A stretch of 24,000 nt of DNA from assembly GCF_000718025.1 (NCBI RefSeq), contig NZ_JODS01000002.1:405972-429971 (forward strand). Direction: 5' to 3'. A model generated the notes under the pieces. That model was not told the origin of the DNA, ran no database searches, and worked only from the letters and a program-made list of their open reading frames with translations. Numbering within the stretch: position 1 is the stretch's first letter; every line of letters starts with the position of its first letter. Positions 90 to 21,692 of the stretch are shown one piece after another. The position numbers and the translations under genes were made by a program. This DNA is from Kitasatospora purpeofusca. GTDB taxonomy: Bacteria; Actinomycetota; Actinomycetes; Streptomycetales; Streptomycetaceae.

Positions 90-509
90 ATGACCACTTC
101 GACGCAGTCGTCCGGAGACCTCAACTGGCTCCTGGACGACCTGGTGGGCCGAGTGGCCGCCCTGCGCCACGCGGTGATCCTCTCCGGCGACGGCCTGGCC
201 ACCGGCGCCTCCCGCGACCTCGCCCGGGAGGACGCCGAGCACCTTGCCGCCGTCGCGGCCGGCTTCCACAGCCTGGCGAAGGGCGCCGGCGGGCACTTCA
301 AGGTCGGCGGCGTGCGCCAGACCATGGTCGAGCTGGACGAGGCCTTCCTGTTCATCACCGCGGCCGGCGACGGCAGCTGCCTGGCGGTGCTGAGCGAGGC
401 CGAGGCCGACATCGGCCAGATCGCCTACGAGATGGCCCTGCTGGTCAAGCGGGTCGGCGAGCACCTGGCCGCCGAACCGCGAGCCGACGTGGCTCCGCCC
501 GGGAGATGA
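90..509 (+). CDS. Roadblock/LC7 domain protein (conservon CvnB-like)
   Basis: 139-aa ORF. The N-terminus ...DLNWLLDDLVGRVAALRHAVILSGDGL... and ...LFITAAGDGSCLAVL... are typical of actinomycete roadblock/LC7 (MglB-like) proteins. AGAAGGA lies 8 nt upstream of the ATG. The stop overlaps the next start (ATGA). Confidence 0.9.
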   Translation: MTTSTQSSGDLNWLLDDLVGRVAALRHAVILSGDGLATGASRDLAREDAEHLAAVAAGFHSLAKGAGGHFKVGGVRQTMVELDEAFLFITAAGDGSCLAVLSEAEADIGQIAYEMALLVKRVGEHLAAEPRADVAPPGR

Positions 510-1108
510 GCGGTCCGATGGCGGACGAGGAGCCGAAGGCGGTGGCGGCCGACCCGGAGCCGCCCGGACCGGGCGCGCCCGGCCCGGGGACGGCCGGATC
601 CGGCACGACCGGAGCGGACGCGGCCGGAACGACCGGCGGGGAAGCCGCCGACCGGGGTCCGGACGGCCCGGACGGCCCGGACGGCGACGGGTCGGGACTC
701 GACCTGTTCCGGCCGCGGACCCCGGTCGACGACCGCTGGTTCGACGACGAGGCCGGCCCGGTGGTGCGCCTCTACTCGATGACCCGGGGCCGGGCCCGAC
801 CGGTCGAGGACGGCCTGTTCGACCTGATCTCGCTGATCGTCGCCAAGGACCCGGCGCCGGTCGCCGCGGCCGTCCCCGCCCATGTGCTGGACCCCGAGCA
901 CCAGACCATCCTGGCCTGGTGCCGCCGGGAGCCGATCTCGGTGGCCGAGCTCGGCTCCTACACCGACCTGCCGGTCAGCGTCGTACGCGTCCTGCTCGGC
1001 GATCTCTACGACGCCGAACTGATCAGCGTCACCCGACCCGTTCCGCTCGCCGAGCTGCCGGACGAGCGCCTGCTGCGAGACGTGATCAATGGACTCCGTG
1101 CGCTCTGA
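506..1108 (+). CDS. DUF742 domain protein (conservon CvnC-like)
   Basis: 200 aa. Disordered Pro/Gly/Asp-rich N-terminus, then ...VVRLYSMTRGRARP... and a C-terminal wHTH-like ...ISVAELGSYTDLPVSVVRVLLGDLYDAELI... characteristic of DUF742. ATGA overlap with the roadblock gene. Confidence 0.9.
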   Translation: MSGPMADEEPKAVAADPEPPGPGAPGPGTAGSGTTGADAAGTTGGEAADRGPDGPDGPDGDGSGLDLFRPRTPVDDRWFDDEAGPVVRLYSMTRGRARPVEDGLFDLISLIVAKDPAPVAAAVPAHVLDPEHQTILAWCRREPISVAELGSYTDLPVSVVRVLLGDLYDAELISVTRPVPLAELPDERLLRDVINGLRAL

Positions 1109-1775
1109 CCTCCACGCCCCCGCCACCGCCCCGGGCCCCGCGTACGACGGGGGCGCCGGGCGGGCCAACGACCCGCGCTGGCGCGGCGGTCCGGCGGTCG
1201 CGGTGAAGATCCTGGTCGCCGGCGGCTTCGGCGCGGGCAAGACCACCCTGGTCGGATCGGTCAGCGAGATCCGGCCGCTGCGCACGGAGGAGGAGCTCAG
1301 CGAGCTGGGCCGCCCCGTGGACGACACCGCCGGCGTCGAGGCCAAGCGCACCACCACGGTGGCGATGGACTTCGGCCGGATCGACCTGCGGCCCGGGCTC
1401 GCGCTCTACCTGTTCGGCACGCCCGGCCAGGACCGGTTCTGGTTCGTCTGGGACGAGCTGGCCCGGGGCGCGCTCGGCGCGCTGGTGCTGGCCGACACCC
1501 GGCGGCTGGCGGACTGCTTCCCCTCGGTGGACTTCTTCGAGCAGCGGCGGATCCCGTTCCTGGTCGCCGTGAACTGCTTCGAGGGCAGTGAGCTGTTCTC
1601 GCCCGAGGAGGTCAGGGACGCGCTCGACCTGGACCCGGACATCCCGGTGGTGCTGTGCGACGCCCGCCGCCGCGAGGACGGCAAGGAGCTGCTGGTGGCC
1701 CTGGTCGAGCACGCGGCGGCGCGCCGGGGGACGAGCACCGGGACGAGCACGGGGACGAGCGCCGGGGCACGCTGA
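1089..1775 (+). CDS. Small ATP/GTP-binding protein (conservon CvnD-like, MglA/Ras-like GTPase)
   Basis: 228 aa. P-loop GGFGAGKTT, DxxG-like FGTPGQDRF, and NCFE in the NKxD position. Overlaps the DUF742 gene by 20 nt. The C-terminus carries a (GTST)n repeat. Confidence 0.9.
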   Translation: MDSVRSDLHAPATAPGPAYDGGAGRANDPRWRGGPAVAVKILVAGGFGAGKTTLVGSVSEIRPLRTEEELSELGRPVDDTAGVEAKRTTTVAMDFGRIDLRPGLALYLFGTPGQDRFWFVWDELARGALGALVLADTRRLADCFPSVDFFEQRRIPFLVAVNCFEGSELFSPEEVRDALDLDPDIPVVLCDARRREDGKELLVALVEHAAARRGTSTGTSTGTSAGAR

Positions 1776-2533: not shown

Positions 2534-3451
2534 ATGAGCGACACCATGTCCTCCACCTCCACGGCCACTCTTCCTCTCCCCTCCGCGACCCCGCACCTGC
2601 GCGCGGTCCGCTCCGTCCCGTCCCCCGCCGACCGCCGGCACGGGGGTCCCGCGCCGCAGCGCCCGGCCGCCGGCCAGCCCGGCTCCGTGCCGCAGGGGCC
2701 GTCCCAGTCCGGCTTCGGGCAGCCCGGCTTCGGCGCGTCCGGTTTCGCCCCGTCGGGGTCGGCCCGGGTCGCCGCCGCCGCGGTCCCGTCCGTCCCGCAG
2801 ATCGTTCCGGCGCTCCCGCCGCAGGCGCTGCTCGCGGCGCTGCCCGAGGGTGCGGCCGTGGTCGCGGCGCTGCCCCAGGGCTCGCTGCCGCAGGCCCTGC
2901 TGGCCCAGTACGGTGCTCAGTTCGGCGCCTCGGCGGGGCAGCCGATGGTCGGTTACCTGGTGCTGGTCCCGGCCGAGGGCGGAGTCGCCGCCGCGCCGGG
3001 TGCCGGGCAGCAGGGCTTCCCGACCGCCTCGATCCCGGCCCCGCAGGCCGGTCCGGTCGCCGCCGTCGGGGCCTCCGTCCTCGGTGCGCCCGGTACCGGT
3101 GGCCTCGGGGTCCCCGGAGTCGGGACCGCCGCCGCGGCCGGCACGCGACCGGTGCGGCCCGTCGGCCGGGGGATCACGGTCGACACCGAGCGCCGGAACG
3201 CTTACGTGGACGGCCAGTTGCTCGACCTGACGTACCTGGAGTTCGAGCTGCTCGCCCACCTGACGGAGCACCCGCAGCGGGTGCACACCCGCGACCACCT
3301 GGTCTCCGCCGTCTGGGGCTACGGCCACGTCGGCGACGGCCGCACGGTGGACGTGCACGTGGCCAGGCTTCGCCGCAAGCTCGGAGCGGCCTACCGCGAC
3401 AGCATCGTGACGGTGCGTCGGGTCGGTTACAAGTACACGCCGGTGGCCTGA
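2534..3451 (+). CDS. Orphan OmpR/PhoB-type winged-helix DNA-binding protein (no receiver domain; long disordered N-terminus)
   Basis: 305 aa. C-terminal ...LDLTYLEFELLAHLTEHPQRVHTRDHLVSAVWGYGHVGDGRTVDVHVARLRRKLG...IVTVRRVGYKY matches the Trans_reg_C effector domain. The first ~210 aa are Pro/Ala/Gly/Gln-rich low complexity. Strong GC3. The start could instead be ATG 2546. Confidence 0.8.
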   Translation: MSDTMSSTSTATLPLPSATPHLRAVRSVPSPADRRHGGPAPQRPAAGQPGSVPQGPSQSGFGQPGFGASGFAPSGSARVAAAAVPSVPQIVPALPPQALLAALPEGAAVVAALPQGSLPQALLAQYGAQFGASAGQPMVGYLVLVPAEGGVAAAPGAGQQGFPTASIPAPQAGPVAAVGASVLGAPGTGGLGVPGVGTAAAAGTRPVRPVGRGITVDTERRNAYVDGQLLDLTYLEFELLAHLTEHPQRVHTRDHLVSAVWGYGHVGDGRTVDVHVARLRRKLGAAYRDSIVTVRRVGYKYTPVA

Positions 3452-3632: not shown

Positions 3633-4415
3633 TCAGATCCGCTGGTCCGGCGGCAGCAGCAGGACCGCGAGCGCGGCGGCGCAGGTCCTGGCGTGGTCCA
3701 GGAACCAGTCCAGCCGCTCGTCGGTGAGGTGGACGGGCGTGGAGCGGACGGCGAGGGCGAACCTGGCCTGGCCGGCGCCGTCCAGCACCGGTACGGCGAC
3801 CGTGCGCACCCCGGTCTCCGACTCGCCGTCGTTCAGCGCGTGACCGGCCGTCCGGACCTTCGCCAGCTCCTCCGCCAGGCGCTCCGGCGCGGTGATGGTC
3901 CGGTCGGTGAACGGTGCCAGCGGGCCGAGCGTCGCCACGCCCGCGTCGCCGGGGCGGGGCCAGGCCAGCAGGACCTTGCCGAGCGCGGTCGAGTGGAGCG
4001 GTCGGCGCAGTCCGAGTCCGGTGTCCGGCCGGACCGAGGCGCCGACCAGTATCACCGCGTGCGGACCGCTGCGGATCGCGAGATCGGCGGCGGCGCCGGT
4101 GCGGCGGGACAGCAGGTCGAGCTCGGGCGCCGCCAGGTGCAGCCCGCGCTGGTGGAAGGTGAGTTGGCCGAGCTCGGCGACCGCCGGGCCGAGCCGGTAG
4201 CGGGCCGTGTGCTCGTCCTGCTCCAGGAAGGCGGCGCTGACCAGGGTGCGGGCCAGCCGGTGCGCCGTGGACACGGACAGGCCCATCCGGCGGGCCAGGT
4301 CCGAGGCGCTCAGGTCGGGGCCGTTGTCGTGGAAGCAGTGCAGCAGTCCGAGGGCCCGCTGAACGGCCTGGGCGCCGGCCGGCGGGCTCTGGGCGGCGGT
4401 GACGGCCTCGGCCAT
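3633..4415 (-). CDS. IclR family transcriptional regulator
   Basis: 260 aa. N-terminal wHTH ...VQRALGLLHCFHDNGPDLSASDLARRMGLSVSTAHRLARTL... and a C-terminal IclR effector domain (...LHSTALGKVLLA..., ...GHALNDGESETGVRTVAVPV...). Divergent from the sulfonate operon. Confidence 0.9.
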   Translation of the reverse strand: MAEAVTAAQSPPAGAQAVQRALGLLHCFHDNGPDLSASDLARRMGLSVSTAHRLARTLVSAAFLEQDEHTARYRLGPAVAELGQLTFHQRGLHLAAPELDLLSRRTGAAADLAIRSGPHAVILVGASVRPDTGLGLRRPLHSTALGKVLLAWPRPGDAGVATLGPLAPFTDRTITAPERLAEELAKVRTAGHALNDGESETGVRTVAVPVLDGAGQARFALAVRSTPVHLTDERLDWFLDHARTCAAALAVLLLPPDQRI

Positions 4416-4498
4416 GGCATCTCTCGTTCTGTCCGTGGCTCCGGTCGTTCACCGGAGTCGCTCCCAGACTATGGCAGCGTGTGCTGCGGGAATGTGTC

Positions 4499-4523
4499 AA
4501 CGGCGTTGCAAAAGGATGCCGTT
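4499..4523. promoter_or_regulatory. Inverted repeat AACGGC-N13-GCCGTT in the lowest-GC patch of the divergent intergenic region (candidate operator)
   Basis: Perfect 6-bp arms at 4499-4504 and 4518-4523 inside the A/T-enriched stretch tgtcaacggcgttgcaaaaggatgccgttcatgaacaagcaatcccatgatg. The binding protein is unknown; the adjacent IclR is the obvious candidate. Confidence 0.3.
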
Positions 4524-4647
4524 CATGAACAAGCAATCCCATGATGTGGCAAACCCTTGCTCCTGGCTCGCCCGCCGTGGAACGCTCGGCGCAGCGCACC
4601 GGGCAGCCCCGTCCGGCGGCGCCCGGACCGCGGGAAGGAGCAGTGCC

Positions 4648-4692
4648 GTGACGACCCACCGGTGCCCCTCCTCCCGCGCCTGTTGTCGCTGA
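4648..4692 (+). CDS. Candidate 14-codon Cys-rich leader sORF (MTTHRCPSSRACCR) of the sulfonate operon
   Basis: GTG 4648 with GGAAGGAG (4633-4640) 7 nt upstream. 3 Cys in 14 codons. Ends GCC TGT TGT CGC TGA. A C-rich, G-poor tract of about 145 nt follows, then the first operon gene. Confidence 0.55.
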   Translation: MTTHRCPSSRACCR

Positions 4693-4836
4693 CGCGCCCC
4701 GGCCCGCGCCGGTCCCGTACGACTCCGCCCCGCCCCCCGTTCCGTTCCACCGCGCCTGGTGACCCCGCACCGCGCCCGCCGCCCCGCCGTCGGCGCCGCG
4801 CACGCACCACGCCCCCGCCGCAGAGGACCAGCCACC

Positions 4837-5910
4837 GTGCCCAGTTCCGCCCGCAGTTCCGTCGAGGAGCCCTCGTCGACCGCCGCCGTTGCCCCGGGGC
4901 CGGTGCCCGACACCCTCTGGTTCACCCGCTGCCCGGTGCCCACCGCGACCGGCATCGCGGCCGACCGGGGCTGGCTGGGACGGGAGTTCGCCCCCGACGG
5001 CATCGCCGTCCGCTCGCTCCAGGACGTGCCTCCGGAGGTCGCTTCCGACCACCACTACACCCACGCCCTGACCGGGCTGTTCCGCGAGGGCGGCAATGTG
5101 CCGGCGCTCTGGGCCCGTTCGCGCGGCGAGCGGACCAGGCTGGTCGGGCTCACCTGGATCGAGGAGCGCCAGGTCGTCCTGGTCCGCTCCGGCAGCGGGG
5201 TCACCGAGCCCGGGCAGCTGCGCGGGCTGCGGCTCGCCGTCCCACACCATGGGATAGCCATCGACTTCTGGCGCGCGATGGCGCTGGCCGGCCTGCACGG
5301 AGCACTCTCGCTCGCGGGTCTCACGCCGGCGGACGTCGAACTGGTGGACGTGCCGGCCGCGCCGGGCGAAGGGCAGTGGGAGGCGGAGCTGACCGCGCTG
5401 CGGGACGGCGTCGTGGACGCGGTCTACGTGAAGGGCGCGCTCGCCGTCGAGGCGGCCCGACGGATCGGGGCGGAGGTCGCCGTCGACCTGGACGCCGTCC
5501 CGGACCGCCGGGCACGGGTGAACAACGGCACGCCCCGGCCGATCACCGTGCGCCAGGAACTGCTCGACGAGCACCCGGACCTGGTGGCCCGCTTCCTCGC
5601 CGTGCTGCTGGAGGCCGCCGACTGGGCCGCCGGGCAGCCGGCCGAGGTCGCTCGGATCCTGGGCGCCGAGACCGGAGCGGGGGAGGAGGGCGTCGCCGGG
5701 GCGTACGCCGCGGGCGGTCACCGCACCCTGCACCTCGATCTCTCCGAGGACCGCCTCGCCCTGCTGGAGCAGCAGGAGCGCTTCCTCGACCGGCACGGGT
5801 TCCTGGCCGGACCGGTCGACGTCCGGGCCTGGGCCGACCCGGAGCCGCTCCGCGCCGCCCGCGCGCTGCTCGCCGCCCGCCGCGCCGAGGGGCGGACGCA
5901 CGGTGGCTGA
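4837..5910 (+). CDS. DszB-like / NMT1-THI5-type substrate-binding-fold protein without signal peptide (possible sulfinate desulfinase-like enzyme)
   Basis: ...DTLWFTRCPVPTATGIAADRGWL... aligns, from my memory of it, with the N-terminus of Rhodococcus DszB (...DTLTYSNCPVPNALLTASESGFL...), including the nucleophile Cys, and with the ...R.GG..P... segment. No signal peptide or lipobox. GTG 4837 is preferred (AGAGGA upstream; GC3 deteriorates upstream of it); the track start 4759 is the alternative. Confidence 0.75.
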   Translation: MPSSARSSVEEPSSTAAVAPGPVPDTLWFTRCPVPTATGIAADRGWLGREFAPDGIAVRSLQDVPPEVASDHHYTHALTGLFREGGNVPALWARSRGERTRLVGLTWIEERQVVLVRSGSGVTEPGQLRGLRLAVPHHGIAIDFWRAMALAGLHGALSLAGLTPADVELVDVPAAPGEGQWEAELTALRDGVVDAVYVKGALAVEAARRIGAEVAVDLDAVPDRRARVNNGTPRPITVRQELLDEHPDLVARFLAVLLEAADWAAGQPAEVARILGAETGAGEEGVAGAYAAGGHRTLHLDLSEDRLALLEQQERFLDRHGFLAGPVDVRAWADPEPLRAARALLAARRAEGRTHGG

Positions 5911-6023
5911 CGGGTAGCGGCCGACACTTCCCGCAAGCCGTCGGTCCGCCGCCCGCGACCCCCGCCCCGTACCCCGCCAGGCACCCCCCCGCCCGCACCC
6001 CTCAGACCTCAGGAGCCGACCCC

Positions 6024-7046
6024 GTGAATCCCTCCCGCCCCCTCCTCGCCGCCACCGCCCTGCTCGCCACCACCCTCCTCGCCGCCTGCGGCTCCTCCGC
6101 CGACGGGGGAGGGACCGCCGCCGGCAAGGGCGACAAGGCCGAGGCAGTGCTCCGGCTGCCCGACCCCGGGAACAACGGCTTCCTCGCCCTGGGCAAGAAG
6201 GACGGCTCGCTCGACCGCGCCCTCGCGGCGGTCCACGCCAAGGTCGCCTGGACCGGCAGCGCCGGCCCCTTCGCGCCCGCCGCCCAGGCCCTCTCCGCCG
6301 ACCAGCTCGACGTCGCCCAGGGCTCGATCACCTCCGCCGTCGCCGCGCTCGCCCAGAAGCCCGGCTTCAAGCTGTTCGCCCAGACCGCCCCCGACGGCGT
6401 CGGCGAAGGCATCCTGGTGAAGAACGGCTCGCCCATCAAGACCGTGCAGGACCTCGTGGGCCACAAGGTCGCCGTGAGCCAGGGCGGCACCAGCGAGTAC
6501 CTGCTGCTCAAGGCGCTGGAGAAGAACGGCATCCCGGCGGACAAGGTCGAGCGGGTCTATCTCCGCGCCGACCAGACGGCGGGCGTCTTCAACTCCGGCC
6601 AGGTGGACGCCTGGGCCACCTGGAACACCTTCTCCACCCCGTCGATCGCCAACTCCGGCGCGCACTTCCTGGTCAACGGCAAGGAGGTCGGCTCCGACAA
6701 CTACGCCGTCTGGGCCGTCCGCAACGGCTTCGCCGACAAGCACCCCGAGGTGGTGAAGGCCTTCTACGCCTATCTGCGCGAGAACGGCCTCAAGGAGAAG
6801 GCCGACCCGGCCGCCTACCTCAACGTCTTCACCGACTCCGGGCCGACCGCCGTCACCCCCGCCGAGAAGGACGTCGCCGTCGAGGTGACCCGCCAGGGCG
6901 CCGCCGCCGACGCCATCGGCGAGGCCGACATCGCCCGCTTCGGCACCGTCGCCGCGTTCTTCGCGGAGCAGAAGGTCACCAAGCAGCCGGTCGACGTCAA
7001 GCCCTATCTGATCGACCTCGGGGCGCTCGGCGGTGGCACCAAGTGA
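6024..7046 (+). CDS. ssuA: Aliphatic sulfonate ABC transporter substrate-binding lipoprotein (SsuA family)
   Basis: 340 aa from GTG 6024 (AGGAG 8 nt upstream). Signal peptide with lipobox LAAC. NMT1/SsuA-like body (...HKVAVSQGGTSEYLLLKALEKNGI...VDAWATWN...). Adjacent to permease and ATPase genes. The 829-aa track ORF is an upstream read-through of this frame. Confidence 0.85.
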   Translation: MNPSRPLLAATALLATTLLAACGSSADGGGTAAGKGDKAEAVLRLPDPGNNGFLALGKKDGSLDRALAAVHAKVAWTGSAGPFAPAAQALSADQLDVAQGSITSAVAALAQKPGFKLFAQTAPDGVGEGILVKNGSPIKTVQDLVGHKVAVSQGGTSEYLLLKALEKNGIPADKVERVYLRADQTAGVFNSGQVDAWATWNTFSTPSIANSGAHFLVNGKEVGSDNYAVWAVRNGFADKHPEVVKAFYAYLRENGLKEKADPAAYLNVFTDSGPTAVTPAEKDVAVEVTRQGAAADAIGEADIARFGTVAAFFAEQKVTKQPVDVKPYLIDLGALGGGTK

Positions 7047-7933
7047 CCACCGCCACCCGCCCGTCGGGGGACCGGGCCACCGGCCCGGAGACCGACCCGG
7101 AGACCGAGGCCGCCCGTGCCGCCGGACTGGTCGAACCGCGCACCCGCCGCCGGACCGCCCGCCCCCGCGCCCTCGCGCTGACCCTGCGCGCCCTCGGCCC
7201 GCTGGCCCTGCTCGGCGGCTGGGCCCTCGCCTCCGCCACCGGCGCGCTGACCCAGGACGTACTGGCCTCGCCCGCCCAGGTCGCCGAGGCGGTCGGCGAA
7301 CTGTGGGGCAACGGCCAACTCGCCGACGCCCTCGGCGTCTCGCTCACCCGGGCCGGCCTCGGCCTGCTGATCGGCGCCGGCACCGGCCTGGTGCTGGGCG
7401 TGGTGACCGGCTTCTTCCGCCTCGGCGAGGAACTCCTCGACTCGGCGGTCCAGGTCCTGCGCACCGTCCCCTTCCTCGCCCTCGTCCCGCTGTTCATGGT
7501 CTGGTTCGGCATCACCGAGACCGCGAAGGTCGCGCTGATCGGCGTCGCCACCAGCTTCCCCATGTACGTGTCGACCTCCGGCGGGGTCCGCAACACCGAC
7601 CCCAAGCTGATCGAGGCCATGCGCAGCTTCGGCCTCGGGCGCTGGGCGATCGTGCGCACCGTCGTCCTGCCCGGCGCCCTGCCCGCCCTGCTCTCCGGCC
7701 TGCGACTGTCCATGACGCTCAGCGTGATCGCCCTGATCGCCGCCGAGGAGATCAACTCCACCGAGGGCATCGGCTACTTGATGGCCCAGGCGCAGAACTA
7801 CTCCCGCACCGACATCCTCGCCGTCTGCATCCTGATCTACGGGGTCCTGGGACTCACCGCCGACGGCATCGTCCGCCTGCTGGAGCGGGTCCTGATGCCC
7901 TGGCGCAGGGCCGCCCAGGGAGGCACCCGATGA
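7043..7933 (+). CDS. ssuC: Sulfonate/nitrate/taurine-type ABC transporter permease (SsuC family)
   Basis: 296 aa, multiple hydrophobic segments, EAA-loop-like ...IEAMRSFGLGRWAIVRTVVLPGALP.... GTGA overlap with ssuA and ATGA overlap with the next gene. Confidence 0.9.
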   Translation: MTTATRPSGDRATGPETDPETEAARAAGLVEPRTRRRTARPRALALTLRALGPLALLGGWALASATGALTQDVLASPAQVAEAVGELWGNGQLADALGVSLTRAGLGLLIGAGTGLVLGVVTGFFRLGEELLDSAVQVLRTVPFLALVPLFMVWFGITETAKVALIGVATSFPMYVSTSGGVRNTDPKLIEAMRSFGLGRWAIVRTVVLPGALPALLSGLRLSMTLSVIALIAAEEINSTEGIGYLMAQAQNYSRTDILAVCILIYGVLGLTADGIVRLLERVLMPWRRAAQGGTR

Positions 7934-8718
7934 CCACCACCCCCGCCCCCAACTTCACCGAAGCCGAAGCCGAAGCCGAAGCCGAAGCCGGGACCGGAGC
8001 CGAAGCCGGGACCGGGACCGGGACCACCCCGGCCGTCCATCTGCGCGGCCTGCGTCGGGTGTTCGGCACCCGGGCCGTGCTCGACGGCGTCGATCTCTCC
8101 ATCGCCCGCGGCGAGTTCGTCGCACTGCTCGGCGCCAGCGGCACCGGCAAGACCACCCTGCTGCGGATCCTCGGCGAGCTCGACCGGGCCGACGGCGGAA
8201 CGGTCCTCGTCCCGCCGGTGCGGACGGTGGTCTTCCAGGAGCCGCGGCTGGTCCCCTCGAAGCGGGTGCTGGCCAATGTCACCGTCGGCCTGCCGCGCGG
8301 TGCCGCCACCCGGGAGACCGGACTGAGGGCGCTCGCCGAGGTCGGCCTCGACCGGCACGCCGACGCCTGGCCGGTCACCCTCTCCGGCGGCGAGGCACAG
8401 CGTGCCGCACTCGCCCGGGCGCTGGTCCGGGCGCCCCAACTGCTGCTGCTGGACGAGCCGTTCGCCGCCCTGGACGCGCTCACCCGGCTGCGTATGCAGG
8501 ACCTCGTGGGCGATCTGGTCCGCCGTCACCGGCCGGCCGTGCTGCTGGTCACCCACGACGTGGACGAGGCGGTGCGGCTCGCCGACCGGGTCGCCGTGCT
8601 CCGGGACGGCAAGCTGGTGCGCGACCAGCGCGTGGGTGTCGCCCGCCCGCGCGACCCGGCCGACCCCGCCTTCGCCGACCTGCGCCGTCTGCTGCTCGCC
8701 GACCTCGGCGTCCACTGA
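7930..8718 (+). CDS. ssuB: Sulfonate-type ABC transporter ATP-binding protein (SsuB family)
   Basis: 262 aa. Walker A GASGTGKTT, signature LSGGEAQR, Walker B LLLLDEPF, H-loop VTHD. The N-terminus carries an (EA)5/(GT)n low-complexity repeat. Confidence 0.9.
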   Translation: MTTTPAPNFTEAEAEAEAEAGTGAEAGTGTGTTPAVHLRGLRRVFGTRAVLDGVDLSIARGEFVALLGASGTGKTTLLRILGELDRADGGTVLVPPVRTVVFQEPRLVPSKRVLANVTVGLPRGAATRETGLRALAEVGLDRHADAWPVTLSGGEAQRAALARALVRAPQLLLLDEPFAALDALTRLRMQDLVGDLVRRHRPAVLLVTHDVDEAVRLADRVAVLRDGKLVRDQRVGVARPRDPADPAFADLRRLLLADLGVH

Positions 8719-8812
8719 CACCGCCCGCCACCCTCGCACCGCCCCGCGCGAAACCGCCCCGCCTCCCCCTCGTCCCGCCCCACGCCCCACCCGCACCACA
8801 GGAGCTGATCCC

Positions 8813-9748
8813 ATGGCCATCACCCTCGGCGTCCACGCCAGCAATCCCTCCCTCTACTACCTCTCCCGACTCGACTACCTGGCCGAGGAGTTGGCACCGC
8901 TCGGGGAGACCGGCGAGTTCCACCGCTACACCGACGGGACCCGCACCGGCGAGCTGCTGGCCGAGGGCGTGATCGACTTCGGCGGCACGGGCTCCACCCC
9001 GCCGGTGACCGCCCAGGCCGCCGGCCACGACCTGGTCTACGCTGCGGTCTCGGCGCCCCGGCCCGACCACGGCGCGCTGCTGGTGAGCGCCGACGGACCG
9101 GTGAAGTCGGTCGCGGACCTCAAGGGCGGCACCGTCGTCCTGGCCATCGGCTCCTGGCAGACCCACCTGCTCGCCAAGGCCCTGCACGCGGAGGGCCTGT
9201 CCTACGCGACCGATGTCACGGCCGTCCGCCCGGCGGCGGGGGAGGACCAGGCGCGGCGGCTGCGCGAGGGCGCGATCGCCGGCTGGATCGCCCAGGGCGC
9301 CGAACTGGCGGCCGCCCGGCGCGAGGGCGGGTTCCGCGAGCTGGTCCGCACCGGCGACGTCATCACCGACCGCTCGGTGTTCTTCACCCGGCGCGGCTTC
9401 GCCGTCGACCGGCCCGAGGTGGTCGCGGCGATCGTCACCGCCCTGCGCCGCGCGGACGCCTGGGTGGCCGCCAACCTGTCCGAGGCGGCCGCGATCGCCG
9501 CGGCGGACCTCGGCGGCAGCGCCGAGGACTGGCGGACCGCCCTGGCCGGGCTGCCGTGGCGGCTGGAGCCGGCGAGCGCCGGGTTCGTCGCCGAGCAGCA
9601 GGAGGCGGCCGACATCTTCCACCGGGTCGGCTTCGTCGACCGGCAGGTGGTCGTCGCCGACGCCCGTCTGCCCGCCCTGGAGGCCCCGGTGGCCGCCGCG
9701 GCGACCGCGGACCCGACGGCCGCCGCCGCCGACACCCGGGCGGTCTGA
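8813..9748 (+). CDS. Second SsuA/NMT1-like substrate-binding-fold protein lacking a signal peptide
   Basis: 311 aa from ATG 8813 (AGGAG about 8 nt upstream). Starts MAITLGVHASNPSLYYL... with no hydrophobic leader. Periplasmic-binding-protein type 2 pattern (...DFGGTGSTPP..., ...LKGGTVVLAIGSWQTHLLAKAL...). Confidence 0.75.
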   Translation: MAITLGVHASNPSLYYLSRLDYLAEELAPLGETGEFHRYTDGTRTGELLAEGVIDFGGTGSTPPVTAQAAGHDLVYAAVSAPRPDHGALLVSADGPVKSVADLKGGTVVLAIGSWQTHLLAKALHAEGLSYATDVTAVRPAAGEDQARRLREGAIAGWIAQGAELAAARREGGFRELVRTGDVITDRSVFFTRRGFAVDRPEVVAAIVTALRRADAWVAANLSEAAAIAAADLGGSAEDWRTALAGLPWRLEPASAGFVAEQQEAADIFHRVGFVDRQVVVADARLPALEAPVAAAATADPTAAAADTRAV

Positions 9749-9751
9749 CCG

Positions 9752-10828
9752 ATGGCCTCCGAATTCCTCTGGTACATCATCCCGCGCGAGGGCCACTACC
9801 CCTGGGAGCCGTCCGGACGCCGCCCGGTCGACCTCCGCTACCTCCAGCAACTCGCCGGCAGCGTCGAGCGGTTGGGCTACACCGGCGCGCTGCTGGCGAC
9901 CGACCTGCACGACGTGTGGGACCTCGGCAACGCGCTCGCCGCCGCCACCACCCCGGCGTTCAAGCCGCTGCTCGCCGTGCACCCCGGGCTGATCTCGCCC
10001 ACCCTGCTGGCCAAGATGGCGCTCAGCTTCGACCACCTGCACGGCGGCCGGCTGCGCTTCAACGTGGTCAACGGCTCCACCGAGCAGCTGCGCGAGTACG
10101 GCCTGCACGTCGAGCACGACGACCGCTACCGCCTCAGCGCCGAGTACTGGTCGATCGTCAAGCGCCTCACCGCCGGCGAGGTCTTCGACCACAAGGGGGA
10201 GTTCTACGACCTCCGGAACGCCGGGGCGAGCCTGCGCGAGCTCACCCCGGTCCAGCCGGGCGGCATCCCGCTCTGGTTCGGCGGCAGTTCGGCGGCCGGG
10301 ATCGAGATGGCCGCCGAGCACGTGGACGTGTACCTCACCTGGGGCGAACCGCCGCAGCAGCTCAAGGAGAAGCTCGACCTGGTCCGGGAGCGCGCCGCCG
10401 CGCACGGACGGACCCTGCGGATCGGCCTGCGGCTGCACCTGATCGTCCGCGACACCGAGGACGAGGCCTGGGCCGCCGCCGACCGGCTCCTCGACGTGAC
10501 CAGCGAGGCCACCTACGCCCGCCAGCTGGGCGGGGTGCGCGGCGAGGACGGCGTCGGCTGGCAGCGGCAGTTCCGCCAGCACGGCGGCAAGGTGCCGGCG
10601 CGGGCCCGGGAGCTGGAGGTCCACCCGAACATGTGGCCCGGCATGAGCCTGTTCCGCCCCGGCCCCGGCACCGCCGTGGTCGGATCGACGGCCCAGGTGG
10701 TCGAGCGGCTCCAGGAGTTCGAGTCGCTCGGGGTGGACACCTTCATCCTCTCCGGCAATCCACTGCTGGAGGAGGCCCACCGGGTCGCCGAGACGGTGCT
10801 ACCGGCGCTGGGCGTCCGACGCCGGTAG
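9752..10828 (+). CDS. ssuD: FMNH2-dependent alkanesulfonate monooxygenase (LLM class, SsuD)
   Basis: 358 aa, collinear with E. coli SsuD as I recall it: ...RPVD..YLQQ.A....RLGYTG.L..., ...VD.YLTWGEPP....EK...VR..AAAHGR..R.G.RLH.IVR.T..EAW.AA..L..., ...LSG.P.LEEA.RV.E...P.L. Confidence 0.9.
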   Translation: MASEFLWYIIPREGHYPWEPSGRRPVDLRYLQQLAGSVERLGYTGALLATDLHDVWDLGNALAAATTPAFKPLLAVHPGLISPTLLAKMALSFDHLHGGRLRFNVVNGSTEQLREYGLHVEHDDRYRLSAEYWSIVKRLTAGEVFDHKGEFYDLRNAGASLRELTPVQPGGIPLWFGGSSAAGIEMAAEHVDVYLTWGEPPQQLKEKLDLVRERAAAHGRTLRIGLRLHLIVRDTEDEAWAAADRLLDVTSEATYARQLGGVRGEDGVGWQRQFRQHGGKVPARARELEVHPNMWPGMSLFRPGPGTAVVGSTAQVVERLQEFESLGVDTFILSGNPLLEEAHRVAETVLPALGVRRR

Positions 10829-11062: not shown

Positions 11063-12055
11063 TCAGCGGCTGAGCGCGTCGATCTCCGCGAGCTCCTCGT
11101 CCGTCAGCGGACCGCCCGCCAGCGCGTCGAGGTTCTGGTCCAGCTGCCGGACGCTGCTGGCCCCGATGATCACCGACACCACCCGCTCGTCCCGCAGGAC
11201 CCAGCTCAGCGCCAGCTGCGCCAGGGTCTGCCCGCGCCGCTCGGCCACCTTGTTCAGCGCCCGCAGCTGGTCCAGCTTCGCCCCGGTGAGCGCCTCCTCG
11301 CGGAGGAACTTGCCGACCGACATCCGCGACCCGCTCGGCACCTCGCCGGAGAGGTAGCGGTCCGTCAGCAGCCCCTGGGCGAGCGGCGAGAAGGCGATCA
11401 GGCTGGTCCGGGTGTCGGCGACCGCGTCCAGCACGCCCTCGTCCTCGACGTAGCGGTTGAGGATCGAGTAGGAGCACTGGTTCATCAGCACCGGCGTGCC
11501 CAGGTCGCGCAGGATCGCCACGGCCTCCCGGTGCTGCTCCGCCGGGTAGTTGGAGATGCCCGCGTAGAGCGCCTTCCCGGACCGGACGGCGGAGGCCAGC
11601 GCGCCCATGGTCTCCTCGAGCGGGGTGTTCGCGTCGTAGCGGTGCGAGTAGAACACGTCCACGTAGTCGAGGCCCATTCGGCCCAGCGACTGGTCCAGGC
11701 TGGCCAGCAGGTACTTGCGGCTGCCGCCGTCGCCGTACGGCCCGGGCCACATGTCGTAGCCGGCCTTGGAGGCGATGAACAGCTCGTCCCGGTACGGGCG
11801 GAAGTCCTGCGCGAACAGGTGGCCGAAGTTGCGCTCGGCGCTGCCGTACGGCGGACCGTAGTTGTTGGCCAGGTCGAAGTGGGTGATGCCCCGGTCGAAG
11901 GCCCGGCGCAGCACCGCCCGCTGGACGTCCAGCGGTTGGGTGTCGCCGAAGTTGTGCCACAGGCCCAGGGAGACGGCCGGGAGCAGCACACCGCTGCGGC
12001 CGGCCCGGCGGTAGGTCATCGACGCATAGCGGTCATCCGCAGCGAGGTAGCTCAT
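11063..12055 (-). CDS. Aldo/keto reductase, YghZ/Gpr-like (L-glyceraldehyde-3-phosphate reductase family)
   Basis: 330 aa from ATG 12055. MSYLAADDRYASMTYRRAGRSGVLLPAVSLGLWHNFG...ITHFDLANNYGPPYGSAE.NFG...YRDELFIASKAGYDMWPGPYGDGGSRKYLLASLDQSL.RMGL.YVD.FYSHR... is near-collinear with E. coli YghZ. The 113-codon upstream extension in the track is Arg/Gly/Pro junk. Confidence 0.9.
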   Translation of the reverse strand: MSYLAADDRYASMTYRRAGRSGVLLPAVSLGLWHNFGDTQPLDVQRAVLRRAFDRGITHFDLANNYGPPYGSAERNFGHLFAQDFRPYRDELFIASKAGYDMWPGPYGDGGSRKYLLASLDQSLGRMGLDYVDVFYSHRYDANTPLEETMGALASAVRSGKALYAGISNYPAEQHREAVAILRDLGTPVLMNQCSYSILNRYVEDEGVLDAVADTRTSLIAFSPLAQGLLTDRYLSGEVPSGSRMSVGKFLREEALTGAKLDQLRALNKVAERRGQTLAQLALSWVLRDERVVSVIIGASSVRQLDQNLDALAGGPLTDEELAEIDALSR

Positions 12056-12142
12056 GCCGGACATCCTGCCAGGTGGGGACCGGCCGGCCGAGGGACGGGC
12101 CGCGGCCGCCGGGAGCCGCACCCGGGGTGCCGGGGACGGCCC

Positions 12143-12172
12143 TTGCCCGGAGCGCGGGCCGGTGCCTATGCT
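12143..12172 (+). promoter_or_regulatory. Candidate housekeeping-sigma (HrdB-type) promoter, TTGCCC-N18-TATGCT
   Basis: -35 TTGCCC 12143-12148 and -10 TATGCT 12167-12172 (TANNNT). This would start a transcript about 40 nt upstream of the sORF at 12221. Sequence match only. Confidence 0.35.
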
Positions 12173-12220
12173 CGCGGGAGATCGTGGATCGTGCGCGTGC
12201 GAGCGGAGGGGGCCGGAGCG

Positions 12221-12277
12221 ATGTGCGTCCGTGCCGTCGACCTGCGCTGTTGTCGCCCCCGCAGCGCCGCGTGCTGA
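12221..12277 (+). CDS. Candidate 18-codon Cys-rich leader sORF (MCVRAVDLRCCRPRSAAC)
   Basis: ATG 12221 with GGAGGGGG upstream. 4 Cys in 18 codons, including CGC TGT TGT CGC. Lies 140 nt upstream of an LLM monooxygenase gene. Confidence 0.5.
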   Translation: MCVRAVDLRCCRPRSAAC

Positions 12278-12417
12278 ACGCCGGTTCCCGAACTCCCGAC
12301 CGGCCCCGCGCGATCCGACCCTTCGGTGCTGCCCCTGCGTGAGCGGCCGATCGCGGGGCGCTCCGCCGGGCCGCCGCGCCGGCCGTCCGCCCACCGAGCG
12401 CCCCCAAGGAGACCGCT

Positions 12418-13449
12418 GTGCGGTTCATCGTCTCGTCCCTCGCGTCCAATGTGCCCGATCCCGTCACGGGCGTGCGGCGCACTCCGCACGAGAAGGTGCA
12501 CAACATCATCGACCAGGCCGTCACCGCCGAGCGTCTCGGCTTCGACGGCTACGGAGTGGGGGAGCGGCACGGCGAGCCGTTCCTGTCCCCGGCACCGGCC
12601 GTGCTGCTGAGCGCCGTCGCCGCCCGCACCTCGGTGATCCGGCTGTTCACCACCGTCACCGTGCTGTCCGTCGCGGATCCGGTCCGGGCGGCGGAGGAGT
12701 ACGCCCTCGTCGACCAGATCTCCGGCGGGCGCCTCGAGTTGATCATCGGCAAGGGCAACGATCCGCGCCTCTTCGAGCAGTTCGGCCTGGCGGAGGAACG
12801 GCAGTGGGAGGCGCTCGCCGAGAACTACGGTCTGCTGCGCCGGCTCTGGCGGGAGGAGAAGGTGACCTGGGAGGGCAGCACCCGGCCGCCGTTGCACGCG
12901 GTCACCACCTGGCCGCGGCCCCACCAGGAGCCGATCCCGGTCTGGCACGGCAGCGCGACCAGTACGCTCTCCACCGACCTGGCCGCCCGCTACGGCGATC
13001 CCCTGTTCTCGGCCAACACCTCGCACCCGATGGAGCAGTACAAGGCGCTGGTGGACCACTACCGGGAGCGCTGGGAGCACTACGGCCGCGCCCCGGAGGA
13101 CGCCCGGGTCGGCACGGGCTTCGGCGGACTCTTCGTCGCCCGGCGTTCGCAGGACGCGTTCGCCGGCTTCCGCCCGTACTGGGAGGCGATGGCGAAGTGG
13201 GCGGCGGGGCGGCGGGGCGGCTCGACGTTCACCTCGCTGGAGGACGCCGTCGGGCGCGGCTCCCTGCTGGTCGGCAGTGTGGAGCAGGTGATCGAGAAGA
13301 TCCACCGCTATCACGAGGCCTTCGGCAACGAGGTGGTGGGCGTCGGCGTGGACCTGCTCACCGAGGGGGCCCAGCGCGAGCAGCTGGAGCTGTTCGCGGG
13401 CGAGGTCGCGCCGGTGGTCCGGCGCGAACTGCCGTCCCGGCGGCCCTGA
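12418..13449 (+). CDS. LLM class flavin-dependent oxidoreductase (luciferase-like monooxygenase)
   Basis: 343 aa. GTG 12418 with AAGGAG 6 nt upstream. ...AERLGFDGYGVGERHG.PFLSPAP.VLL.AVAARTS.IRL.T.VTVLS..DPVR.AEEYA.VD..SGGRLEL..GKGN... is the typical LLM N-terminal TIM-barrel signature. Confidence 0.85.
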   Translation: MRFIVSSLASNVPDPVTGVRRTPHEKVHNIIDQAVTAERLGFDGYGVGERHGEPFLSPAPAVLLSAVAARTSVIRLFTTVTVLSVADPVRAAEEYALVDQISGGRLELIIGKGNDPRLFEQFGLAEERQWEALAENYGLLRRLWREEKVTWEGSTRPPLHAVTTWPRPHQEPIPVWHGSATSTLSTDLAARYGDPLFSANTSHPMEQYKALVDHYRERWEHYGRAPEDARVGTGFGGLFVARRSQDAFAGFRPYWEAMAKWAAGRRGGSTFTSLEDAVGRGSLLVGSVEQVIEKIHRYHEAFGNEVVGVGVDLLTEGAQREQLELFAGEVAPVVRRELPSRRP

Positions 13450-20214: not shown

Positions 20215-20395
20215 GACGCCGAGTCCCGTCCACCCGCCGGCCGGCAATCGAGCACCACAGCGGACGGGAGCGGGGGACCCAGGTCAGTGCCCGGCCGCGC
20301 GCCCAGAGCGTGCGAGTCGCGGCTAGGGGTGAAGCCGCTCTCCGGACGGCCGGGCAACCTCGCGCCCGAACCCGACAGCTCACCTCGTAGGCGTC
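20215..20395 (+). promoter_or_regulatory. Cyclic-di-AMP riboswitch (ydaO/yuaA motif)
   Basis: Conserved cores are present in order: AGCGGGGGACCCA (20269-20281), GGGGUGAAGCC (from 20326), and CCCGAACCCGACAGCUCACCUCGUAGGCGUC (20365-20395). Compare the B. subtilis ydaO cores GCGGGGGACCCA, GGGGUGAAUCC and CCCGAACCCGUCAGCUAACCUCGUAAGCGU. P1 can form between GACGC 20215-20219 and GCGUC 20391-20395. A hairpin CCCGUCC/GGACGGG (20225-31 / 20262-68) precedes the first core, as in ydaO. Confidence 0.85.
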
Positions 20396-20411
20396 GCAGA
20401 GGACCACTGCC

Positions 20412-21692
20412 ATGCCCACTGCCTCCCCGCAGCCTGCGCCGAACCGGCGCGCCCTCGGCCGCCACCCCGCGCCCCGCCACGCCCGTCCCTCCCACCGGGG
20501 CCGCAGCGCCGCCCTCGCCGCCACCGGGGCGCTCGCCGTCACCGGTGCCGGACTGCTCGGCCTGCCGGCCGTGACCGGCGCCCAGGCCGCCGCCCTGCCG
20601 ACCGTCACCCAGGACAAGCTCGCCCCGGCCGCCATGGTCGCGGGCAAGGCGGCGACCGGCTCGCTCACCCTGCACTCCTCGTCCTGCTTCACCGCGAAGA
20701 CCGTCGGCGTCGGCATCCGCGACGCGGCCGGGCACAACCTCGACTTCCCCGGGAACAAGAGCAACGTCCAGGTCTGCCCGGCCGGCCTGACGGTCACCAC
20801 CGGCGCGCGCACCCTGGCCGCCGGCACCTACACCCAGTTCGGCTTCTGGCAGGACAGCACCGGCGGCTGGCACAACCTGCCCTCCCGCGAGCTCGTCGTC
20901 TCCGCCGCCACCCCGACGCCGACCCCGACGCCGACGCCCACCCCCACGCCGACCCCCACGCCGACCCCGACGCCGACCACCCCCACCACGGGTGCCCCGG
21001 TCGCGGGCAAGACGCTCACCTGGTCCGACGACTTCAACAGCCTCGCCCTGGGTTCCCGCTGGACCGCCGACCGGAGCAGCTCCTACCACTACGGCGACCA
21101 CAACCCGAACGACAACAAGCTCGACTGGCTGAACAAGAACAACGTCGCCGTCTCCGGCGGCGTCGCCACCTTCACCGCCCGGCCGGGCACGCACACGCTG
21201 GAGAACGGCAAGCAGGCCTGGGACACCGGCCTGCTCACCACCGAGTACTCCAGCGAGGGCTTCAAGGTGAAGACCGGGGACTACATCGAGACCCGGGTCA
21301 AGCTCCCGGCCGGCACCGGCGCCTGGCCGGCGCTGTGGACGTGGAACAGCACCAGCGGCACCCACGGGGAGATCGACTCCTTCGAGTACCACAGCGACAA
21401 CCCGAACCTGCTGGAGCTGACCAACCACATCAACCCGGGCCACCTGTACGTCACCGACGCCAAGGCGATCGCCAAGGACAGCTGGGTCACCGTCGGCACC
21501 CACTACGGCGCCACCTCGGTCGACTGGTACATCAACGGCACCAAGGTCTTCTCCGACGGCAAGGGCGTCGGCGCCGGCTGGACGGCCTACCCGATCCTCA
21601 ACCTGTCCCTGAGCGCGGGGAACTACCACCCCGCGCCCTCGGGCACCACGCCGATCACCTTCGCGGCGGACTACGTCCGGGTCTACCGGTAG
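20412..21692 (+). CDS. Secreted glycoside hydrolase family 16 protein (unknown N-terminal domain, Thr-Pro linker, GH16 catalytic domain)
   Basis: 426 aa. Arg-rich N-region plus hydrophobic signal ending AQA. A domain of about 105 aa of unknown family. (TP)n linker at nt 20910-20984. GH16 hallmarks WPALW and the catalytic E-I-D-S-F-E (GEIDSFEY), with a concanavalin-like C-terminus ...ITFAADYVRVYR. Confidence 0.85.
   Translation: MPTASPQPAPNRRALGRHPAPRHARPSHRGRSAALAATGALAVTGAGLLGLPAVTGAQAAALPTVTQDKLAPAAMVAGKAATGSLTLHSSSCFTAKTVGVGIRDAAGHNLDFPGNKSNVQVCPAGLTVTTGARTLAAGTYTQFGFWQDSTGGWHNLPSRELVVSAATPTPTPTPTPTPTPTPTPTPTPTTPTTGAPVAGKTLTWSDDFNSLALGSRWTADRSSSYHYGDHNPNDNKLDWLNKNNVAVSGGVATFTARPGTHTLENGKQAWDTGLLTTEYSSEGFKVKTGDYIETRVKLPAGTGAWPALWTWNSTSGTHGEIDSFEYHSDNPNLLELTNHINPGHLYVTDAKAIAKDSWVTVGTHYGATSVDWYINGTKVFSDGKGVGAGWTAYPILNLSLSAGNYHPAPSGTTPITFAADYVRVYR

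Follow-up and report, generated by a model that had tools for sequence, protein, structure and literature searches.

A putative cysteine-sensing leader reading frame ahead of a sulfonate-scavenging operon in Kitasatospora purpeofusca

The stretch analysed here (the window) comprises 24,000 nucleotides (nt) of Kitasatospora purpeofusca contig NZ_JODS01000002.1 (positions 405,972–429,971 of the forward strand), and the element under study is a short open reading frame (sORF) located at 4648–4692 on the plus strand, ahead of a sulfonate-scavenging operon. The sORF lies within the 421-bp intergenic region that separates a divergent gene for an IclR-family regulator from the GTG start (4837) of the first operon gene, and the gap between the sORF and this gene amounts to 144 nt. 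It starts with GTG, has 14 sense codons (GTG ACG ACC CAC CGG TGC CCC TCC TCC CGC GCC TGT TGT CGC), terminates with TGA at 4690–4692, and would encode the peptide MTTHRCPSSRACCR, which contains three cysteine (Cys) residues. The Cys pair TGT TGT occupies codons 12 and 13, and these two rare Cys codons, the following arginine (Arg) codon and the stop codon make up a sensor-stop module, TGT TGT CGC TGA (4681–4692, +), with near-invariant nucleotides. As read from the sequence, the start codon is preceded by the Shine-Dalgarno (SD) sequence GGGAAGGAG (4632–4640, +) at a distance of 7 nt. The preliminary description of this DNA had reported a near-ideal SD with a 7-nt spacer before GTG 4648, a 14-codon frame with three Cys codons and a TGT pair two codons before the stop, and it proved accurate in all of these particulars. 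The window sORF is unannotated, and current annotation models miss the shortest forms of this kind.

The operon proposed to be under control of the sORF (4837–10828, +) keeps its synteny in all 80 loci compared. It begins with a gene for a cytoplasmic DszB-like protein of the SsuA/NMT1 fold (4837–5910, +), whose closest solved structure is that of DszB (2de2; E-value, 4e-16), and continues on the same strand with genes for an SsuA-like lipoprotein (about 5990–7046), an ATP-binding cassette (ABC) permease (7043–7933), an ABC ATPase (to 8718), a second SsuA-like protein (to 9748), and an SsuD-like LLM (luciferase-type) monooxygenase (9752–10828), the last of which scores 341 bits against an alkanesulfonate monooxygenase model, below its cut-off. 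The identities of these genes, given earlier as DszB-like, ssuA, ssuC, ssuB, binding-protein-fold protein and ssuD, are borne out by the profile and structure matches. The first gene is preceded by its own SD (GAGGA, 4823–4827; SD and start together, 4823–4839, +). The start at GTG 4837 agrees with homologues of 356–357 amino acids, and the block GCAGAGGACCAGCC(C)ACC GTG at this start is conserved in close relatives. The top-ranking protein matches and an exact hit to a neighbouring peptide assign the window to Kitasatospora purpeofusca.

The gene for the IclR-family regulator (3633–4415, −) is divergent in 80/80 loci, and the regulator is likely to control transcription initiation of the same operon. 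Conserved blocks situated upstream of the sORF (4455–4590, +) probably contain promoters and the IclR operator; among 11 diverse loci the invariant stretches in these blocks are TGAACA, TCCCA..AT.TGG.AA..CTTG and TGGAACGCTC, and in the window the same region contains the palindrome CAACGGCGTTG. The element GGAAC found in the blocks resembles a −35 element of the extracytoplasmic function (ECF) type, and a consensus scan of the leader region 4300–5000 found no sigma-70 promoter consensus. Since the conserved blocks, 60–190 nt upstream, lie 5' of the sORF, the transcript probably carries a 5' untranslated region (UTR) rather than starting leaderless at the sORF.

The comparison set consisted of 80 loci encoding relatives of the DszB-like protein, one genome per species. 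The divergent IclR gene and the genes for SsuA and SsuC are present in all 80 loci, and the LLM gene was detected in 56 of them, i.e., wherever the fetched flank extended far enough. In sORF-bearing loci, both the short and the Streptomyces-type forms of the sORF are located in the slot between the IclR and the DszB-like genes. An SD-led sORF of 12, 14 or 20 codons, ending in Cys-Cys-Arg-stop or in a one-base variant of it, was found in 62 of the 80 loci, all of them from Kitasatospora or Kitasatospora-like genomes, whereas 12 loci carry a longer Streptomyces-type sORF and six carry none. These 62 syntenic loci display the Cys-containing, SD-led sORF that the preliminary description expected in orthologous ssu leaders. 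The SD, the GTG, the frame and the TGA are conserved in the 62 loci and the window (63 sequences), and the GGA(A/G)GGAG core of the SD is kept together with its spacing in 63/63 of these short forms. The length of the short sORF differs by whole codons only (12, 14 or 20), and the number of Cys codons ranges from two to five. On comparative grounds, the conservation of the leader sORF exceeds chance, and the element is very probably functional.

Five of the six loci without sORF belong to Streptosporangiales with a short intergenic region, and the sixth is a Kitasatospora (L061, 3619–4039) that retains the operon and the conserved upstream blocks and has neither an SD-led reading frame nor Cys codons in their place, which makes it a natural deletion variant. 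A scan of metagenomes for GGAG N6-7 GTG N15-45 TGTTGTCGCTGA yielded mostly chance matches on unrelated contigs, and revealed no further operons.

The strongest single signal is the choice of codons at the 3' end of the sORF. The terminal 12 bases read TGT TGT CGC TGA in 53 and TGT CGT CGC TGA in six of the 63 short forms; consecutive TGT TGT near the 3' end was counted in 57 of the 63, and the remaining six have TGT CGT. Neither the long forms of Streptomyces nor a paralogous sORF at 2041–2169 in the window departs from the ending TGT CGC TGA, and throughout the 80 loci the pattern TGTYGTCGCTGA is found on the plus strand only, confined to the two sORF positions. Among the last three sense codons of the sORFs, 131 of the 132 Cys codons are TGT. 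This codon is rare in the genes, as had been stated in advance: 14 genes of the window with Pfam support contain 18 TGC codons and a single TGT, the corresponding numbers for the downstream gene in all loci are 73 and three, and the overall counts are 91 and 4 (4/95 TGT). The Cys codons farther 5' in the same sORFs are mixed (TGC 68, TGT 33). The preference for TGT is thus specific to the terminal Cys codons, where selection is extreme.

In Streptomyces and one metagenome-assembled genome (MAG), the same slot holds a sORF of 32–45 codons with an SD of the type GGAGGGAGCAGG. The C-terminal half of these long forms is strongly conserved (...LTRRRHIDLARVAGAGCR-stop), with the general pattern ...LTRRRHIDLARVxxxxCR-stop. 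The orthologous Streptomyces/MAG sORFs score 28.3–31.9 bits on the NCBIfam model NF042934 ('cis_reg_atten, putative leader peptide'; cut-off, 27 bits; motif, LTxRRHIDLxRV...CR), except for one that scores 24.5, and they match NF042936 (Ms4527A) and NF042933 (Ms5788A) at 8–34 bits, below the curated cut-off of 45 bits that applies to both. In the NCBI annotation, the Streptomyces orthologues are named 'putative leader peptide'. Synonymous changes among the Arg codons of RRRHIDL (CGN and AGG included) show that the long form is under selection at the peptide level and hence translated. The terminal TGT CGC TGA is constant, and the constraint on the final three codons acts on the codons or nucleotides themselves. 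In total, 130 members of NF042934 were retrieved, 121 of which end in CR; the distance from the start of the RRHID motif to the C-terminus is fixed at 15 residues, and a single Cys is present in about half of the members. The family is thus marked by Cys, Arg and stop placed at a constant distance from a motif of tunnel length, and its general invariant is Cys-Arg-stop (TGT CGC TGA), not polycysteine.

The window sORF is most likely a derived, internally shortened Kitasatospora member of this actinobacterial family of Cys leader peptides, as suggested by its orthologous position, the same SD type and 3' end, the existence of 20-codon intermediates, and a full-length paralogue in the window. 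The intermediates come from three Kitasatospora species, and their ending (...VRVRRTCCR) resembles the Streptomyces tail (...LVRVAATCCR); an exact look-up of the 20-codon forms in a protein collection gave no entry. Neither these forms nor the window peptide match NF042933 or NF042936. The window sORF shares with NF042934 members a position flanked by the divergent IclR gene and the DszB-like/ssu operon, the SD-led start, the identical 3' end TGT CGC TGA, and a C-rich leader afterwards, but it lacks the LTxRRHIDLxRV motif and any match to the hidden Markov model, and has about one third of the length. Sequences of the window type have two to five Cys codons, whereas many long forms have only one, and a compact hairpin hiding its own SD is a feature of the window sORF. 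By descent, it most likely belongs with NF042934, while its working most likely resembles that of the mycobacterial polycysteine sORFs.

The paralogue (2041–2169, +) is a full-length leader sORF of 42 codons (MNVEQRCAAAGSAQADLAMPATPALTVRRYIDHALICSACCR) with its own SD and the family motif, ending in ...LTVRRYIDHALICSACCR and stop. It shares the 16-base ending GCCTGTTGTCGCTGAC with the focal sORF, and the window contains two copies of the 12-mer TGTTGTCGCTGA where 0.06 would be expected. The paralogue scores 18.3 bits against the mycobacterial Cys leader models, below the 45-bit cut-off, and is kept in most Kitasatospora loci; in Kitasatospora purpeofusca, a peptide of exactly this sequence is annotated as 'hypothetical protein'. 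Downstream come a C-rich tract and, about 365 nt from the sORF, a gene on the same strand (2534–3451, +), whose product has an OmpR/PhoB winged helix at its C-terminus and no receiver domain that could be detected. This arrangement suggests a cysteine-sensing leader that would control a transcription factor beside the ssu operon.

Folding of the leader predicts an RNA hairpin at 4626–4687 (+; −31.2 kcal/mol; z-score −3.35 against dinucleotide shuffles). In its outer stem, positions 4626–4640, i.e., the SD and its 5' flank, pair with 4668–4678 and 4685–4687, which correspond to codons 7–11 and part of the Cys pair, whereas the apical stem (4643–4650 with 4657–4665) holds the GTG start. The same architecture was predicted in 12 of 12 representative loci, in 11 of which the z-scores range from −1.9 to −4.0. 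In an alignment of 60 sequences with a hand-defined structure, 84.9% of the cells are paired in the register of the window, compared to 40–64% with slid partners. RNAalifold recovered only the apical stem from this alignment, because the register of the outer stem differs between clades. Many stem positions alternate between G-C, G-U and A-U, and the G-U pairs fit an RNA rather than a DNA structure. The mean energy needed to open the ribosome-binding site (RBS) was computed as 19.2 kcal/mol for the sORF and 8.7 kcal/mol for the first gene. A search for a conserved pairing partner of the invariant GCCUGUUGUCGCUGAC found none, and the best partners are scattered. A scan of the leader 4300–5000 against Rfam 15 with E-values up to 10 gave no credible match (PtaRNA1, at 13.5 bits and an E-value of 8.8, is noise), and no Rfam family was found in the leaders of six related loci.

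The sORF stop is followed, up to the SD of the first gene, by a C-rich, G-poor and poorly structured spacer (4693–4822, +), a candidate loading region for Rho. The interval 4693–4836 is 57% C and 27% G (C/G 2.1), and the C–G skew of the spacer (0.355) falls within the top 0.8% of 144-nt windows. The C-rich tract after the sORF that the preliminary description had pointed out is therefore real, and it is conserved as composition: all 72 spacers measured are C-rich, with C/G ratios of 1.4–2.6, while neither sequence nor length is conserved (85–254 nt in Kitasatospora, 164–560 nt in Streptomyces). Over the loci tested, folding z-scores of the spacer range from −1.6 to +1.7, with no significant structure, and the spacer of the clade that includes the window folds worse than its shuffles (+1.7 to +1.9 in the window). 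A consensus scan and folding of 4300–5000 detected neither a terminator hairpin with a U-tract nor an antiterminator; a hairpin followed by UUUCC was found only in the distant 12-codon clade. The spacers contain no boxA-like or conserved Rho utilization (rut) sequence that could be found, and their resemblance to a rut site, a C-rich, G-poor and unstructured stretch of about 80 nt beside the leader stop, is one of composition only.

Some minor features of the spacers and of the operon were also observed. In four Streptomyces loci (L067, L068, L075 and L079), with spacers of 380–560 nt, the motif GC(C)UGACG, similar to CGCUGAC at the sORF end, is repeated two to three times within 40 nt after the sORF stop. 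A small hairpin (GCUGA-CGUCG-UCGGC) is formed by one copy, and its loop, CGUCG, is seen again in many Kitasatospora loci, in a conserved hairpin (CUCCGRC-CGUCG-YCGGAG) that closely precedes the main SD. Within the operon, the tracts 5893–6141 and 8620–8932 (+), at the junctions before the two SsuA-like genes, exceed the leader spacer in their excess of C over G (skew, 0.54 and 0.57); they may represent internal sites sensitive to Rho, or else intergenic regions, signal peptides or linkers.

Taken together, it is probable that the sORF at 4648–4692 is a translated, Cys-tRNA-sensing cis-regulatory leader of the sulfonate operon. This reading, which is in line with the one proposed in the preliminary description, draws on the conserved SD, GTG, frame and stop of the 63 sequences, the selection for TGT, and the link to NF042934, and it has as much support as comparative sequence analysis can give. 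A sulfur-scavenging operon is the expected target of a cysteine sensor. Bacteria normally have a single tRNA-Cys with the anticodon GCA, which reads UGU by wobble. The near-absolute selection for UGU precisely at the last Cys positions suggests that these serve as ribosome-waiting codons.

The leader may work as follows. On an mRNA with a 5' UTR, the ribosome would load on the strong SD of the sORF, probably co-transcriptionally, because in the finished RNA the 3' half of the sORF is predicted to hide its own SD and start. It would then arrive at the two UGU codons, to be read by the normally sole tRNA-Cys. With plentiful Cys-tRNA, the ribosome would pass, terminate at CGC-UGA and leave, the hairpin would shut, and the operon would stay attenuated. 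With scarce Cys-tRNA, it would stall with its front edge at the stop codon and hold the hairpin open, and the attenuation of the DszB-like/ssu genes would be relieved. The IclR regulator presumably adds an independent control of initiation. Conservation establishes the reading frame with its SD, the choice of codons, the potential to form the hairpin, the family link and the setting in front of the operon, and the sensing step is well supported by indirect evidence; the stalling, the direction of control and the output step we infer.

Several observations weigh against the proposed cysteine-sensing leader or against parts of it. The leader peptide is poorly conserved outside the C-terminal CCR, and the conserved bases of the sORF fall mostly in predicted stems, so that the RNA accounts for part of the conservation. 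In one Kitasatospora species (L061), the sORF has been lost. The covariation of the hairpin is not significant (seven pairs with double changes, as in 84 of 500 shuffles), partly because the outer stem shifts its register between clades, and the modelled strong sequestration of the SD and start may result in low steady-state translation of the sORF. The window sORF, tested as a 20-residue extended translation, matches no NCBIfam or Pfam model, and its putative homology to the long form rests on position, shared 3' end and intermediates. With respect to the output step, none of the models gained support in the folding tests, C-rich tracts are also present elsewhere in the operon, and stalling at UGU would leave the ribosome covering no more than a few bases past the stop, which makes a simple tnaC-like block of Rho not obvious. 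The Cys-Arg-UGA geometry with its invariant CGC and UGA is not explained by any of the output models considered.

Given a Cys-tRNA-sensing leader, the output that we tentatively favour, at somewhat less than an even chance, is premature termination of the Rho type in the C-rich spacer, since the composition of the spacer, its lack of structure and its freedom of sequence fit such a process. Rho has been proposed for actinobacterial Cys leaders without terminators by Seliverstov et al. (PMC1262725), and upstream open reading frames (uORFs) of M. tuberculosis act together with Rho (PMC12810186; 10.1101/2022.06.01.494293). The leader shares with the known Rho-linked leader systems (tnaC of the E. 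coli tna operon, Salmonella mgtL, the M. tuberculosis uORFs) a leader reading frame followed by a long, untranslated, C-rich spacer with no intrinsic terminator, but Rho dependence here is only a candidate property based on composition, and the stalled ribosome would leave most of the spacer after the stop uncovered. Control of the RBS of the first gene via some rearrangement, again within the Cys-tRNA-sensing reading, comes next and is rather doubtful, with a similar weight left for other routes.

A rival explanation is translational attenuation as described for Ms5788A: once the ribosome has left, the Cys-codon tract would base-pair with the first gene's SD and start and block them, unless a stalled ribosome prevents it. 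This is the only experimentally dissected mechanism in the family (10.1101/834739), and in some close relatives the minimum-energy fold does pair CGCUGACGCG with the start region of the first gene, CGUGCCCAGC. Such pairing as an output was looked for in silico across the 63 loci, and was not found. The duplex between the last sORF codons with the stop and the main translation-initiation region (TIR) has a mean z-score of +0.84 relative to shuffled TIRs, falls below −1.64 in 0/63 loci, and is weaker than a mid-spacer control. A simulated footprint of a stalled ribosome leaves the opening energy of the main RBS practically unchanged (8.68 vs. 8.74 kcal/mol; easier in 15 loci, harder in 20). The best partner of the Cys tract is its own upstream flank, with no other partner conserved, and the Streptomyces sORF is 164–560 nt away from the gene. 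An Ms5788A-type output is therefore unlikely in this leader.

Equally unlikely is a four-element RNA switch, in which stalling on the 3' arm of the hairpin frees the G-rich SD arm, which then captures a CUCC-type element of the spacer, e.g., GACUCCGCCCCGCC at 4722–4735, with the outcome that a terminator-like hairpin is prevented or the main SD is released. The logic would be similar to that of ermC or mgtA, with the competing strand upstream of the sensor codons. When the 3' arm is blocked, pairing of the SD arm with the spacer rises to 15.4 expected base pairs from 6.1, the partner in the window (ACGACUCCGCCCCGCC) closely repeats the 3' arm of the sORF itself, and CUCC-type motifs are recurrent in the spacers. 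The stem-loop followed by UUUCC in the 12-codon clade also becomes less probable under simulated stalling in several loci (e.g., 0.67 to 0.25 and 0.82 to 0.54), but this effect is modest, vanishes if a second ribosome sits on the freed SD, and concerns a site with no terminator-like counterpart in the clade of the window. The freed SD arm has no conserved partner position (+13 to +205), which also counts against the preferred cysteine-sensing reading, and the overall pairing of the spacer is barely altered by simulated stalling (0.54 to 0.56). In G+C-rich RNA, a G-rich arm finds C-rich partners by composition alone.

A non-coding RNA or a protein-binding structure (mRNA stabiliser, pause or regulator site), with the reading frame incidental or translated without cysteine sensing, would account for the variable peptide, for the coincidence of conserved bases with predicted stems, for the R/C variation at codon 10 that tracks the opposing stem base, and for a significantly stable hairpin that buries the SD and start. 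It is nevertheless very unlikely, as it leaves unexplained the rare-codon bias at the terminal Cys and the length changes by whole codons; nor does it explain why TGT CGC TGA stays the same despite the quite different flanks of the Streptomyces long forms and of the 42-codon paralogue, why SD and GTG are kept unchanged at an ideal distance, or why the long forms show peptide-level selection.

The least probable of the explanations weighed, with only a slim chance, is a tnaC-type arrest of the nascent peptide at Cys-Arg-UGA by a small molecule (free cysteine, sulfide, O-acetylserine or similar) that would block the entry of Rho by the stop: the long-form LTxRRHIDLxRV at a fixed 15 residues from the C-terminus in 121/130 members, half of them with a single Cys, has a geometry typical of arrest peptides, CGC and UGA are also invariant without being needed for Cys-tRNA sensing alone, and the C-rich tract begins directly after the stop, but the window sORF lacks the motif, is too short at 14 codons to fill the exit tunnel, and has gained extra Cys codons, which fits the sensing of tRNA charging, while a signal rising with cysteine has the wrong direction for a scavenging operon unless the ligand marks starvation.

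Some simpler candidates were rejected. The peptide is variable except for CCR, which speaks against a functional Cys-rich micropeptide. The inverted repeat was dismissed as a DNA operator, its arms being about 28 nt apart with many G-U pairs. The hairpin followed by UGUUGU, taken as an intrinsic terminator, could not sense Cys codons that have not yet been translated, and would leave the common 3' end of the long forms and the paralogue unexplained. A classical terminator/antiterminator attenuator does not agree with the lack of a terminator-like site in 4300–5000 and with a spacer that folds worse than shuffles. In comparison with the classical attenuators (trpL, hisL and ilvL; in Actinobacteria, PMC1262725 and PMC8079986), the leader shares the enrichment for the relevant amino-acid codons a few codons before the stop, and the predicted closure of the leader RBS by RNA folding after the first round of translation, but the window has no detectable terminator hairpin with a U-tract or antiterminator, and the spacer varies in length and sequence.

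The cysteine-sensing leader proposed here has its nearest functional counterparts in mycobacteria. Polycysteine sORFs of M. smegmatis are cysteine-responsive attenuators, and in the case of Ms5788A the Cys tract base-pairs with the downstream SD region (10.1101/834739). Similar to these mycobacterial leaders (Ms5788A/Rv0815A and Ms4527A; Canestrari et al. 2020, 10.1101/834739; NF042933, NF042936), the Kitasatospora sORF is a co-oriented short reading frame directly upstream of a sulfur/cysteine operon, with consecutive C-terminal Cys codons and a proposed sensing of Cys-tRNA by ribosome pausing. In contrast to the leaderless mycobacterial sORFs with up to nine Cys, the Kitasatospora sORF appears to be SD-led with a conserved 5' UTR, has 12–14 codons with two to five Cys, and always has an Arg codon between the last Cys and the stop; its Cys tract is predicted to pair with its own SD, not with the downstream SD. 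Of the differences from mycobacteria listed in the preliminary description, the SD-led start probably holds, given the invariant SD and the conserved blocks 60–190 nt upstream, whereas a Cys pair that abuts the stop is not distinctive, as the mycobacterial Cys tract is likewise C-terminal in its sORF (10.1101/834739).

The novelty implied for this kind of leader was also overestimated. Elements of this kind were predicted in 2005 and shown in 2020, NCBI has a model of the family, and its annotation already names the Streptomyces orthologues putative leader peptides. What is new is the minimal Kitasatospora form that escapes annotation, the rare-codon sensor-stop module that genera and paralogues share without variation, the predicted hairpin in which the sORF shuts off its own SD and start, the failure to find mycobacterial-type pairing, and the finding that a single locus has two such leaders, one ahead of the gene for an OmpR-type regulator.

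These elements can be joined into a single, speculative scheme, which as a whole we consider improbable. In this scheme, Cys leaders of Streptomycetaceae would contain a fixed UGU-CGC-UGA sensor-stop module, which Kitasatospora would have reduced to a minimal, self-closing, one-shot co-transcriptional Cys-tRNA sensor of 12–14 codons with a Rho-dependent output, and the two leaders would constitute a small, translation-driven cysteine regulon that includes a relay through a transcription factor. The SD-masking duplex of mycobacteria may then be replaced by termination in a spacer that is set by its composition.

With the leader described here, cysteine sensing by the ribosome, known from mycobacteria, would reach the antibiotic-producing Streptomycetaceae and the scavenging of sulfonates and organosulfur compounds. 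With 45 nt plus a spacer, it is a very small natural test case for the tuning of an amino-acid sensor by rare codons, for the question of why Cys-Arg-UGA is fixed, and for the coupling of stalling to expression without a terminator or SD masking. It could also serve as a compact cysteine-responsive expression part in the engineering of actinomycetes.

Several other features of the window were observed. The frame MCVRAVDLRCCRPRSAAC (12221–12277, +), located 140 nt upstream of a second LLM monooxygenase gene (12418–13449), contains VDL..CCR; it is antisense to an aldo/keto reductase gene (11063–12394, −), and is probably due to chance. The only Rfam match in the whole window is a cyclic di-AMP (c-di-AMP; ydaO/yuaA) riboswitch at 20243–20408 (+), which scores 47.5 bits against a gathering score of 38 and lies directly upstream of a reading frame (20412–21692) with a weak GH16-type domain. 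At the beginning of the window (90–1775, +), genes for Roadblock/LC7, DUF742 and ATP_bind_1 (GTPase-like) proteins follow each other in a row, which we take to be the cvnB-cvnC-cvnD arrangement of an actinomycete 'conservon'.

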